From: an uncultured Acidobacteriota bacterium
GTDB taxonomy: Bacteria; Acidobacteriota; Thermoanaerobaculia; UBA5066; Gp7-AA6
Assembly: GCA_963736455.1 (NCBI GenBank)
Contig: CAVTON010000002.1
Coordinates: 1,112,620 to 1,176,619, forward strand
DNA: 64,000 nt
Reading direction: 5' to 3'
Shown here: positions 48,409 through 64,000 of the stretch, piece after piece
How the letters are laid out: each line of letters opens with the position of its first letter
Numbering within the stretch: the first letter of the stretch is position 1
Notes under the pieces: generated by a model
What the model was told of the DNA's origin: nothing
Databases searched by the model: none
The model's input: only the letters and a program-made list of their open reading frames with translations
Program-made: the position numbers and the translations under genes

Positions 48409-50836
48409 TCATTCCGAACCGAGGGCGACCCGCGGGTCGAGGCGAGACGCTCGCCGCGCCGGAAGCCAGTGCGCGGCCCCTGCCACTGCGGCGAGCAGTG
48501 CGGCGGCGCCCGCGAGCGCCACGGGGTCTCCGGGGCTGACTTCGTAGAGGACAGAGCGCAGGAGACGTGTCAGGGCGAGCGCGGCCAGGACGCCGCCGCC
48601 CAGTCCGGCGGCCACGGTCCCGGCGCCGCGGACGAGGACCAGACGGACGATGTCGCCGGGCCGCGCGCCGAGCGCGGTCCGGATCCCGAACTCGCGCCGC
48701 CGCCGCGCGACCCCGTGCGCGACGACGCCGTAGAGGCCGACCGAAGCGATGAGCAGGGCGATACCGGCGAAGCCCCCGAGCAATCGCATCACGAAGACAC
48801 GCGGCGCCGCCGACTTCCTCACGAGGTCTTCCATCGTGGACACCGCGTAGACGGGAACCGAGGGATCGAGGCCGCGCAGTGAGGCAATGAGCGACGGCGC
48901 GAGCCGCTCCGGGTGCGGCGTCCGGGACCGGACGACGAGCGTCAGCATTCCGTCGACGAACTGAGGCTGGGGCAGGTACATCTGGGGAGTCGGCGCTTGC
49001 GCCACGTCGCGGTGTCGAACGTCGCCCGCGATGCCGACGATCGTCCGCCAGGGACCGTTGTCGGGGTCGCCGATCCGTACGCGCTCTCCGATCGGATCGC
49101 GGCCCGAAAAGAGAGACCGGGCGGTCGTCTCCGAAACGATCATGACCGGGAGGGAATCGGCGCGGTCCGCTTCGGTGAAGAGACGTCCGCGAAGGAGCCG
49201 AACGCCCATCGCCGCGAAGTATCCGGGCGTCACAGAGTAGCGCTCGACGGCCGGGTCTTCCGCCGTGTTCGCCTTCGAGTGGCCTTCGACGTGGAAGCCG
49301 AAGGAATCTCCGTTGCCGCCGAGGGGAATCTGGCCGGCGAAACCGGCCGCCGCGACCTCGCCGTGGGATCGGACCTGCTCCAGGGCGCGCCGCTGGTAGT
49401 CGAGCACGGCGGCCTCCTGCTCGTAGGCAGGCCCGCTCAGAGAGACCGCGAGCGTCAGCACGCGGTCCGGAACGAAACCGAACGGCGTGTCGAGGAGCCG
49501 CGTCAGGCTCCGGATCATCAGCAGGGCGCCGGCGACGAGGACAACCCCGATGGCCAGGTCGGCGCCGACGAGCCAGCGTCGGGATCGCGCCGCGTCGGCC
49601 CCGGAGCTCGATCTCGACGCCGAGGCCAGGGCGCGCGGCAGCCAGGCCGACGAGGTCTGGAGCGCGGGAACGATTCCGGCCACGAGCGCGGCCCCGAGGG
49701 AGAGGATCGTCGCGAAGGCGACGACACGGACGTCGACGGCCGCGTCCCCGAGGCGGGGAAGTGCGATCGGGGCGAGCCTCAGGAGAGCGGTGTGGAGGAG
49801 CGCGGCGAGGGCGAGCCCGAGGGCGCCGCCGGCGCCTCCGAGGACGAGGCTCTCGACGAGGAGCTGGCGGATCAACCGGCCGCGGCTCGCGCCGAGCGCG
49901 CCGCGGATCGCCATCTCGTGGGCCCGCGTCACGCCGCGCGCGAGCATGAGGTTGGCGACGTTCGCGCAGGCCGCCAGCAGGACGAAGCCGACCGCGCCGA
50001 GCAGGACGAGCAACGGCACGCGGGCTCCGGCCGTCAATTCATTCCAGAGCGGCGTTACCGTGAACTCCCCGACCGGGTAGTCGCGGGGATACTGCGCGGC
50101 CAGCCGGCCGCGGATCCGATCCAGGTCCGCCTCGGCCCGGGCGATGGACACGCCGGGAGCCAGCTGACCGATGGCCTTGAGGTGCTCGCAGCTCCGGCAG
50201 GCGTACGGACAGTCCGCGCCGATACCCGACGGGTGCCCAGAGCTGCGCGTCCTGGTAGTAGCGCGCCGAGAGCAGGTCGCGAAACTCTTTCGGCAGCACG
50301 CCGACGACGCGGAAGTCCTCGCCGTTTAGGCGGACGGACCGGCCGACGATCGCGGGGTCGGCGCCGAACCGGCTCCGCCAGAGTGCGTCGCTCAGCAGAA
50401 CCACCTTCCAGGCGTCGGGGTTGTCGTCGTCCTTCGCGATGAACCTGCCGAGAGCCGGCCGGGCGCCGAGCATGGCGAAGTAGTCGGGAGTGACTCGCAG
50501 TGCCGGTAGGCGTTGCCCGCCGTCGGGCGCACTCAGCGTCGGGTACCAGGAACGGATTACGGCCATCCGGGAGAAGGTCCGGTTGTCGTCGCGGACGTCC
50601 TCGAACGTCTCGTAGCCGATGTTGTCCGGCTCCGCGTTCGGCGACCGGTCGCCCAAGCGCACGAGGCGGCCGGCGTCCGGGTAGGGAAGCGGCCGCCACA
50701 GCACCGCATCCACGACGCTGAAGATGCCGGCGTTGGCGGCGATGCCGAGGGCGAAGGTCGCGAGGGCCATCGCCGTGAACCCGGGGCTGCGGCGCAGGGA
50801 GCGGATCGCGGAGCGGACGTCCTGGCCGATCGTCAT
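48409..50836 (-). pseudogene. FtsX/MacB-type duplicated permease disrupted by a 1-nt frameshift near 50214-50222
   Basis: The N-terminal part (ATG 50834-36, MTIGQDVRSAIRSLRRSPGF...LWAPVGY) is in one frame. The C-terminal 580 aa (...CRSCEHLKAIGQLAPGVS...) are in another. An intact paralog has GYDTSLPQSCRSCRHLRAIARL, which fixes the junction to the CGGCGCG run. Confidence 0.6.
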
Positions 50837-50846
50837 CGAAGACTCC

Positions 50847-63802: not shown

Positions 63803-63878
63803 GCTTCGGTCCTCAATCGCGCTCGCGGCGGGTCCGACGATCGAGAGGGGAAGGCGACGGCGGCAGGATTGCTCCCAT

Positions 63879-64000
63879 CACTCGTTCCTCAGCGCGATGA
63901 CGGGGTCGATGCGCGCGGCGCGCCGGGCCGGAAGCCACGCGGCGGCGACGCCGGACAGGCCGAGGAGGGCGGCGACCCCGATGAACGTCGGCGGATCCCA
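63879..64000 (-). CDS. FtsX/MacB-type permease, 3' end only (continues beyond the window)
   Basis: The reverse strand gives ...[17 protein letters not shown], the characteristic ADOP C-terminus. Stop at 63879-63881. Confidence 0.7.

Follow-up and report, generated by a model that had tools for sequence, protein, structure and literature searches.

We examined a 64,000-nucleotide stretch of a contig from an uncultured Acidobacteriota bacterium (hereafter, the window; its G+C content is ~70%) and found an array of duplicated permeases of the ADOP family (TIGR03434), with a single gene for an ATP-binding cassette (ABC) ATPase embedded among them. Two of the permease genes each contain one extra base, which breaks them into two frames. 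ADOP reportedly stands for "acidobacterial duplicated orphan permease," and the original TIGRFAMs text is said to have stressed the absence of adjacent ATPase genes. We think it likely that the permeases of the array form an operon around a shared ATPase and that both frameshifts are consensus indel errors of a Nanopore-only assembly, with both genes intact in the organism.

Six complete ADOP-family permease genes and the last 40 codons of a seventh lie in the same direction on the - strand, from position 48409 to the end of the window (Table 1). We lettered these genes G to A, from 5' to 3' on that strand, and we call the eighth permease of the window, which is on the + strand, P8; F', E', and B' are the counterparts of F, E, and B in related loci. 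From G to A, the intergenic gaps are 75, 5, 33, -4 (D and the ATPase gene overlap by ATGA), 14, 19, and 10 nucleotides (nt). This spacing is operon-like, and the array is probably part of a long co-directional operon. Scanning the array for promoters and terminators, we found no promoter-like sites inside it, and terminator-like sites were not in excess. Rfam and tRNA scans gave no match, and no permease fragments besides the genes of Table 1 turned up within the window. A previous reading of this DNA without database searches (the sequence-only reading) had described seven array permeases of 800-835 amino acids (aa) with gaps of 5-33 nt. The lengths hold for the six complete genes, while the length of the seventh cannot be read from the 40 codons in the window. 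Of the gaps, the 75 nt between G and F are outside the described range.

We judged membership in the ADOP family by the curated cutoff of NCBIfam's TIGR03434, which is 622 bits (622.3). A, B, C, D, E, F, and P8 all matched nearly the whole profile, with scores of 797-953 bits. For A and E, these are scores of the repaired proteins, and both are inside the range of the intact copies. Two stretches of MacB_PCD (PF12704) and two of FtsX (PF02687) were found in five of the five intact copies that we tested, and among solved structures, the nearest by sequence are chains of MacB (5NIK, 5LIL, and 5GKO). The order of the Pfam domains, the hydropathy of the chains, and the matches to MacB structures all agree with the four-helix FtsX module, in which a periplasmic domain lies between the first and second transmembrane helices (TM1 and TM2); the hydropathy is compatible with 4+4 TM helices per chain. 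The sequence-only reading correctly took these proteins for FtsX/MacB-type duplicated permeases, and it correctly placed an eighth permease and a PadR regulator on the + strand (36371-39379), which we confirmed by matches to TIGR03434 and TIGR03433. It did not recognize that both families are already named. Judging by the profile scores, the permeases belong to the known ADOP family and the PadR protein belongs to its partner paralog family. The PadR gene ends 21 nt before the start of P8.

The eight copies in these 64 kb are just 33-43% identical to each other. Conservation is highest in the N-terminal helix with TM1 and in the segments of TM2 and TM6, each with the ensuing cytoplasmic stretch. 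The periplasmic domains are the least conserved segments. We found no sign of recent duplication or gene conversion among the paralogs in the window, a possibility that had been raised earlier: the longest near-identical tracts are 30-35 nt and are in conserved motifs. The paralogs are old.

The embedded ATPase is of the MacB/LolD/FtsE type. Its translation contains the complete catalytic set: Walker A, the Q-loop, the signature LSGGQQQ, Walker B (LLLADE), and the H-loop histidine (QVTHS). It scores 110 bits against PF00005. No other ABC ATPase is encoded in the 64-kb window, so the earlier statement that exactly one is embedded, with its start coupled to a permease gene by ATGA (a 4-nt overlap with D), stands. 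Its best model was that of DarD, the darobactin export ATPase (NF038007), at 253.7 bits. We rejected this assignment because the score is under the equivalog cutoff of 375 and we saw no darobactin genes.

The ATPase gene is far more conserved than any other gene of the array. Proteins that are 88-97% identical to it are encoded in over 100 contigs, and those contigs that are named are from Thermoanaerobaculia. Its ratio of nonsynonymous to synonymous divergence (dN/dS) is ~0.1. In comparisons with two more distant relatives (L006 and L010), dN was 0.05-0.07 for the ATPase and 0.14-0.22 for the orthologous permeases. We collected ten related loci (L001-L010) from two protein searches; some of these are short contigs. 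ADOP genes flank the ATPase gene in all ten. To look more broadly, we also considered the best 80 of 591 homologous ATPase loci (L011-L090) from a scan with one genome per species. An ADOP gene lies directly beside the ATPase gene in 47 of these 80 loci, which are from several phyla, and 28 of the 80 have no directly adjoining ADOP gene. Homologs with 70-76% identity are found in Gemmatimonadota, Terriglobia, Bryobacterales, Vicinamibacterales, Verrucomicrobiota, and others. They are often beside ADOP genes, so the pairing of this ATPase with ADOP permeases is widespread in soil phyla.

By analogy with characterized transporters, we propose the following mechanism. Each ADOP chain would consist of two MacB-like halves fused in tandem, each half with TM1, a periplasmic core domain, and TM2-4 (8 TM helices in total), and so a single chain would mimic the dimer of MacB or LolCE. 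Two copies of the embedded ATPase would bind to any one permease, at its two cytoplasmic coupling regions. A 2:1 ratio of ATPase to permease has been described for YbbAP, in which YbbP is a single-chain pseudo-dimer (PMC12646458). Binding and hydrolysis of ATP would then move the periplasmic domains (mechanotransmission), as in MacB, LolCDE, and YbbAP, and this movement would extract or expel some substrate from the envelope. The old paralogs might be alternative periplasmic "heads," of differing specificity, on a common engine. Slow evolution, as seen for the ATPase, would fit a hub that must accommodate many partners.

That the array permeases share one ATPase is plausible and is compatible with the pattern of conservation. 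It is also something that we infer, and translational coupling to the ATPase is limited to D. Alternatively, the ATPase might serve only D, or D and C, while the other ADOP proteins are true orphans that use a distant ATPase or none. We consider this unlikely, if far from negligible. It would account for the overlap with the ATPase start being restricted to D, for P8 having no ATPase gene nearby, and for the 28 of 80 homologous ATPases that have no ADOP gene directly beside them; the original TIGRFAMs text, with its reported emphasis on missing ATPase genes, also points this way. But D is lineage-specific, with orthologs (like those of C) in L001 and L002 only and none in L006 or L010, whereas the ATPase is conserved, as is its place in the array, which weakens the idea that it serves D alone. 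In L006 and L010, it is the ortholog of E, not of D, that precedes the ATPase gene. The very slow evolution of the ATPase protein is compatible with a hub with many partners. Also, an FtsX/MacB-type permease without a nucleotide-binding domain has no known mode of working, given what is established for type VII ABC transporters (PMC12646458).

We now turn to the frameshifts. In tblastn comparisons with the intact paralogs, the matches to A and E both run on into a second frame, with one lesion per gene, as the sequence-only reading had claimed. For E, removing the extra C at the junction that had been given earlier yields FGSDPGAVGRTVNLEG, which agrees with the orthologs (...AVGRA/VVGRA...). 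For A, the frame can be restored by removing a single base at either of two nearby places. Because the orthologs P0243 and P0244 read GYAKGLPYACRDC and GYDRSLEYACRSC, we placed the extra base at 50209-50210, and its removal gives GYRRGLPYACRSC. The sequence-only reading had put it in a CGGCGCG run, 5-12 nt upstream of this place. Both lesions need a +1 shift for the frame to be repaired, and both are in the first periplasmic domain.

Several lines of evidence point to errors in the assembly. First, the relatives of both proteins are intact. Orthologs of E with 807-808 aa are encoded in dozens of contigs. A has no close ortholog in L001-L010, and its best homologs (64-65% identical) are intact, with ~809 aa. 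The split gene calls (P0121, 657 aa, and P0241, 536 aa) are confined to the source genome.

Second, frameshifts are associated with the type of assembly. Three contigs from the Joint Genome Institute (JGI; L006, L007, and L010) contain 21 ADOP genes and no frameshifts. In contrast, the ENA assemblies whose contigs have "contig_N" names in the style of Flye (L001-L005) have many frameshifts. B' is broken in L001 only, and even the strongly conserved ATPase is frameshifted in L003 and L005. Across the 80 species-level loci, 1 of 120 ADOP genes from short-read assemblies was frameshifted, as compared to 9 of 39 from long-read assemblies (Fisher exact test, p = 1.2e-5). Within the closest clade, the counts by type of assembly were 5/16 versus 0/49 (p = 5e-4). 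The 80 loci include eight "contig_N" records, and six of these are titled as metagenome-assembled genomes (MAGs) from Microflora Danica, which are Nanopore-only, assembled with Flye, and polished with one round of Medaka (PMC12313526). The closest relatives of our window are on Flye-style contigs, in an ENA accession series that is shared with the Microflora Danica MAGs.

Third, the selection test gave no sign of decay. Past the break in E, dN/dS is 0.20, as compared to 0.11-0.18 in the intact neighbors; for the out-of-frame tail that F' has in the relatives, it is 0.11. We found neither relaxed selection nor a second lesion downstream of the break in E; A, which has no close ortholog to compare with, also has one lesion. 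Since there is no relaxation, this test does not separate a very recent mutation from an artefact.

Overall, the most likely explanation for both frameshifts is indel errors in the consensus of a Nanopore-only assembly, given that the rate of frameshifts per gene is ~1% naturally and ~23% in long-read assemblies. Of the two explanations in the sequence-only reading, the link between frameshifts and long-read assemblies favors assembly error. The other explanation, active decay of the paralog family, finds no support: the copies are old and lack conversion tracts, the orthologous arrays in JGI and short-read assemblies are intact, and the codons of E past the frameshift are still under purifying selection (for A there is no close ortholog).

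Two further sets of long-read frameshifts are worth describing. In L001 and L002, which are 99.7% identical, F' is broken by different inserted bases that are 28 nt apart (at 4610 in L001 and at 4638 in L002), and in both loci the gene caller fuses F' and E' into an open reading frame of 1,617 aa. This looks like a consensus error in a locally heterogeneous region. Also, E and its orthologs are frameshifted within residues ~127-166 in three independent long-read assemblies (L003, 9544-11965; L004, 9525-11947; and the window, 60877). Two of these three events share one alignment column, next to CCGG. When we checked the frameshift sites for the methylation motifs CCGG and CCWGG, these were present at some sites and not at others, and no motif was common to all of the sites. 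The zone at residues 127-166 of E may be a hot spot of systematic base-calling errors.

Some observations weigh against assembly error. Homopolymers are the classic context for Nanopore errors. The sequence-only reading had described homopolymer-like contexts, but neither frameshift site is a homopolymer run, so the mechanism of error is not homopolymer slippage. We found no frameshift in the other ~48 kb of the window (~40 genes), as judged by a plot of the phase of G+C at third codon positions and by the integrity of Pfam domains; the local error rate therefore looks low. (A change of phase at 1-276 that might be taken for a frameshift is the boundary of pheS and pheT.) With an even error rate, both events would fall within the array with a probability of ~0.06. 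Real decay does occur in this type of array, as described below. Finally, we infer the Nanopore origin of the window's assembly from its nearest relatives and from a contig record that reads "ncbi, ena."

The content of the array varies among close relatives. E, F, and B have orthologs in L006 and L010. At the position of A, the relatives have an ADOP remnant of 316 aa (15657-16607 in L001 and 15656-16606 in L002), which is 37% identical to A and comes from a different paralog. TM1 and the first periplasmic domain of the remnant are joined in frame to its last TM helix, which implies a deletion of ~1.5 kb. Aligning 50657-63997 of the window with 2490-15826 of L002 shows that identity varies in gene-sized blocks: ~90% for F, ~75% for E, ~89% for D, 93.5% for the ATPase, ~97% for C, and ~90% for B. 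Synonymous divergence (dS) varies from 0.05 (C) to 0.75 (E). Unlike its neighbors, E is equidistant from L002, L006, and L010 (dS ~0.75-0.8). Given these blocks and the wide range of dS, individual permease alleles seem to have been exchanged by recombination.

This variability is part of the case that both frameshifts might be real and very recent pseudogenizing mutations, as part of birth-and-death turnover in a redundant and fast-changing array. The gene content differs between close lineages (D and C lack orthologs in L006 and L010, as does A in all of the close relatives); the deleted remnant of 316 aa cannot be a base-calling error; the gene-sized blocks of identity to L002 (~75-97%) imply frequent recombination; and the other 48 kb of the window are free of frameshifts. 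The published ADOP cluster of Psychroflexus also holds pseudogenes (PMC3914696). However, the natural rate of such lesions, as estimated from the 1 of 120 ADOP genes in short-read assemblies, is ~1% per gene. The broken genes have no second lesion and no relaxed selection (selection was measured for E only), and assemblies of the same type have frameshifts even in the conserved ATPase. We therefore find real pseudogenes improbable.

In the window and in L001, L002, and L003, all of the events that we detected are in the array and none are in the flanking genes. If frameshifts are truly concentrated in ADOP arrays, then the array might be a high-turnover "contingency" repertoire, whose heads are switched off and replaced by recombination while the slowly evolving ATPase hub is kept. 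We regard this as very doubtful. Speculatively, and independently of any result here, a mosaic locus that is heterogeneous among strains could make the long-read consensus less reliable, and this would explain why errors in base calling cluster in the array.

Programmed +1 ribosomal frameshifting or phase-variable switching of the permeases is barely credible and we rejected it: both lesions can be repaired by a +1 shift, both lie in the first periplasmic domain, and orthologs of E are broken near residues 127-166 in two other assemblies, but neither site in A or E has a slippery or hungry-codon context, a nearby stop in the zero frame, or a variable repeat tract, and the sites of the shifts are not conserved, as they vary between assemblies and are absent from all of the short-read and JGI orthologs.

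Downstream of the array, the longer of the related loci that reach past its end share an order of genes: after the array come msrB, a sigma-54-dependent response regulator, and histidine kinases (Table 1). In the window, this set spans 42080-48261 on the - strand and comprises msrB, the regulator, its kinase, and a large sensor kinase with Y_Y_Y and Reg_prop domains. It is also on the same strand and downstream of the array in L002, L003, L006, and L010. This set may be what regulates the array.

In the rest of the window, we found a single in-frame stop codon, in a gene for a peroxiredoxin of the BCP/PrxQ type (starting at 6382 or 6400 and ending at 6837, + strand). A TGA at 6529-6531 takes the place of the peroxidatic cysteine (WFYPKADTPG-TGA-TVEGCGF), and the match to Pfam's AhpC-TSA profile is split into positions 1-40 and 44-123 across the TGA. 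An 8-bp GC-rich hairpin lies ~10 nt past the TGA, with an energy that is no better than that of shuffled sequence. This is probably a selenocysteine protein and not a broken gene.

Table 1. Genes of the ADOP array, the two frameshift sites, and associated genes in the window
Feature	Position	Strand	Details
Permease G, partial	63878..64000	-	C-terminal 40 codons and stop; runs off the end of the window; counterpart is an 811-aa gene of L002
Permease F, intact	61382..63802	-	806 aa; TIGR03434, 934 bits; two MacB_PCD and two FtsX stretches
Permease E, two frames via one extra base	58952..61376	-	807 aa when repaired; TIGR03434, 953 bits
Extra C in E	60877..60878	-	GCC GTC GGA/C/CGG ACG GTG
Permease D, intact	56486..58918	-	810 aa; stop overlaps the ATPase start (ATGA)
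MacB/LolD/FtsE-type ABC ATPase	55815..56489	-	224 aa
Permease C, intact	53374..55800	-	808 aa; nearest solved relatives are MacB chains 5NIK, 5LIL, 5GKO
Permease B, intact	50847..53354	-	835 aa
Permease A, two frames via one extra base	48409..50836	-	808 aa when repaired
Most likely extra base in A	50209..50210	-	GGA CTG/T/CCG TAC, by comparison with orthologs P0243 and P0244
msrB (SelR domain)	47845..48261	-	immediately follows the array, as in L002, L003, L006, L010
Sigma-54-dependent response regulator	46476..47831	-	conserved synteny
Histidine kinase paired with the regulator	45155..46471	-	conserved synteny
PadR regulator	36371..36703	+	Acidobacteria-type paralog family; TIGR03433, 162.5 bits (cutoff 101.8)
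Permease P8	36725..39379	+	884 aa; N-terminal "permease prefix" domain; TIGR03434, 927 bits; NF038403, 60 bits

These results are a caution that single-base frameshifts in Nanopore-only genomes from metagenomes can mimic gene decay in families of paralogs. Here, accurate assemblies of related populations contradict the reading as gene decay. Most likely the frameshifts have no biological basis, and the point worth keeping is that the label "orphan" does not apply to this array. ADOP permeases are not orphans in Thermoanaerobaculia or at many loci in Gemmatimonadota and Terriglobia, where arrays are built around one very conserved MacB-type ATPase. The conserved ATPase is an obvious handle on the function of an abundant but uncharacterized family of transporters from soil bacteria.

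Among the known systems, Escherichia coli YbbAP(-TesA) resembles the array in having a separate ATPase gene beside a permease with two FtsX-type halves in one chain. YbbAP has two copies of the ATPase per permease and works by mechanotransmission (PMC12646458); for ADOP we suggest the same by analogy. YbbP has 10 TM helices, with a pair of linker helices, while the hydropathy of ADOP proteins is compatible with 8. Against the YbbP model (NF041854), E scores just 27 bits, far below the cutoff of 999. Also, we saw no TesA-like partner in the window, and there are many permeases per ATPase gene here.

MacAB-TolC and LolCDE have the identical order of domains in each half and an ATPase of the same MacB/LolD/FtsE type. 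However, MacB has a fused nucleotide-binding domain and is a homodimer, whereas ADOP proteins are fused pseudo-dimers with a separate ATPase. Scores fell well short of all equivalog cutoffs. Among the open reading frames of the window that we scanned, none encodes a membrane-fusion adaptor (HlyD/MacA) or a TolC-like outer-membrane protein; the array starts beyond the end of the window. Some other ABC systems share an ATPase: in group II energy-coupling factor (ECF) transporters and with MsiK of Streptomyces, one ATPase energizes several membrane partners. These are importers with unrelated folds, so they are analogies only.

The array adds to a well-defined and already named family, and clusters of ADOP paralogs with ATP-binding genes have been published before. 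The family was first noticed in acidobacterial genomes, and Psychroflexus torquis has a 42-kb ADOP cluster with about ten paralogs, along with ATP-binding transporter genes and pseudogenes (PMC3914696). Other genomes contain dozens of copies (PMC11573002), and there is almost nothing in the literature on the function of ADOP proteins. The window, which is from an Acidobacteriota genome, probably of the class Thermoanaerobaculia, shows the same clustering of large sets of paralogs and the same internal duplication of MacB_PCD and FtsX, and one copy (P8) is paired with a matching PadR regulator. P8, with no adjoining ATPase gene, is an orphan in the original sense. In contrast, the array has its ATPase gene inside it, between D and C, translationally coupled to D, and no gene of the locus is more conserved. 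The present NCBIfam name of TIGR03434, "ADOP family duplicated permease," no longer includes "orphan."

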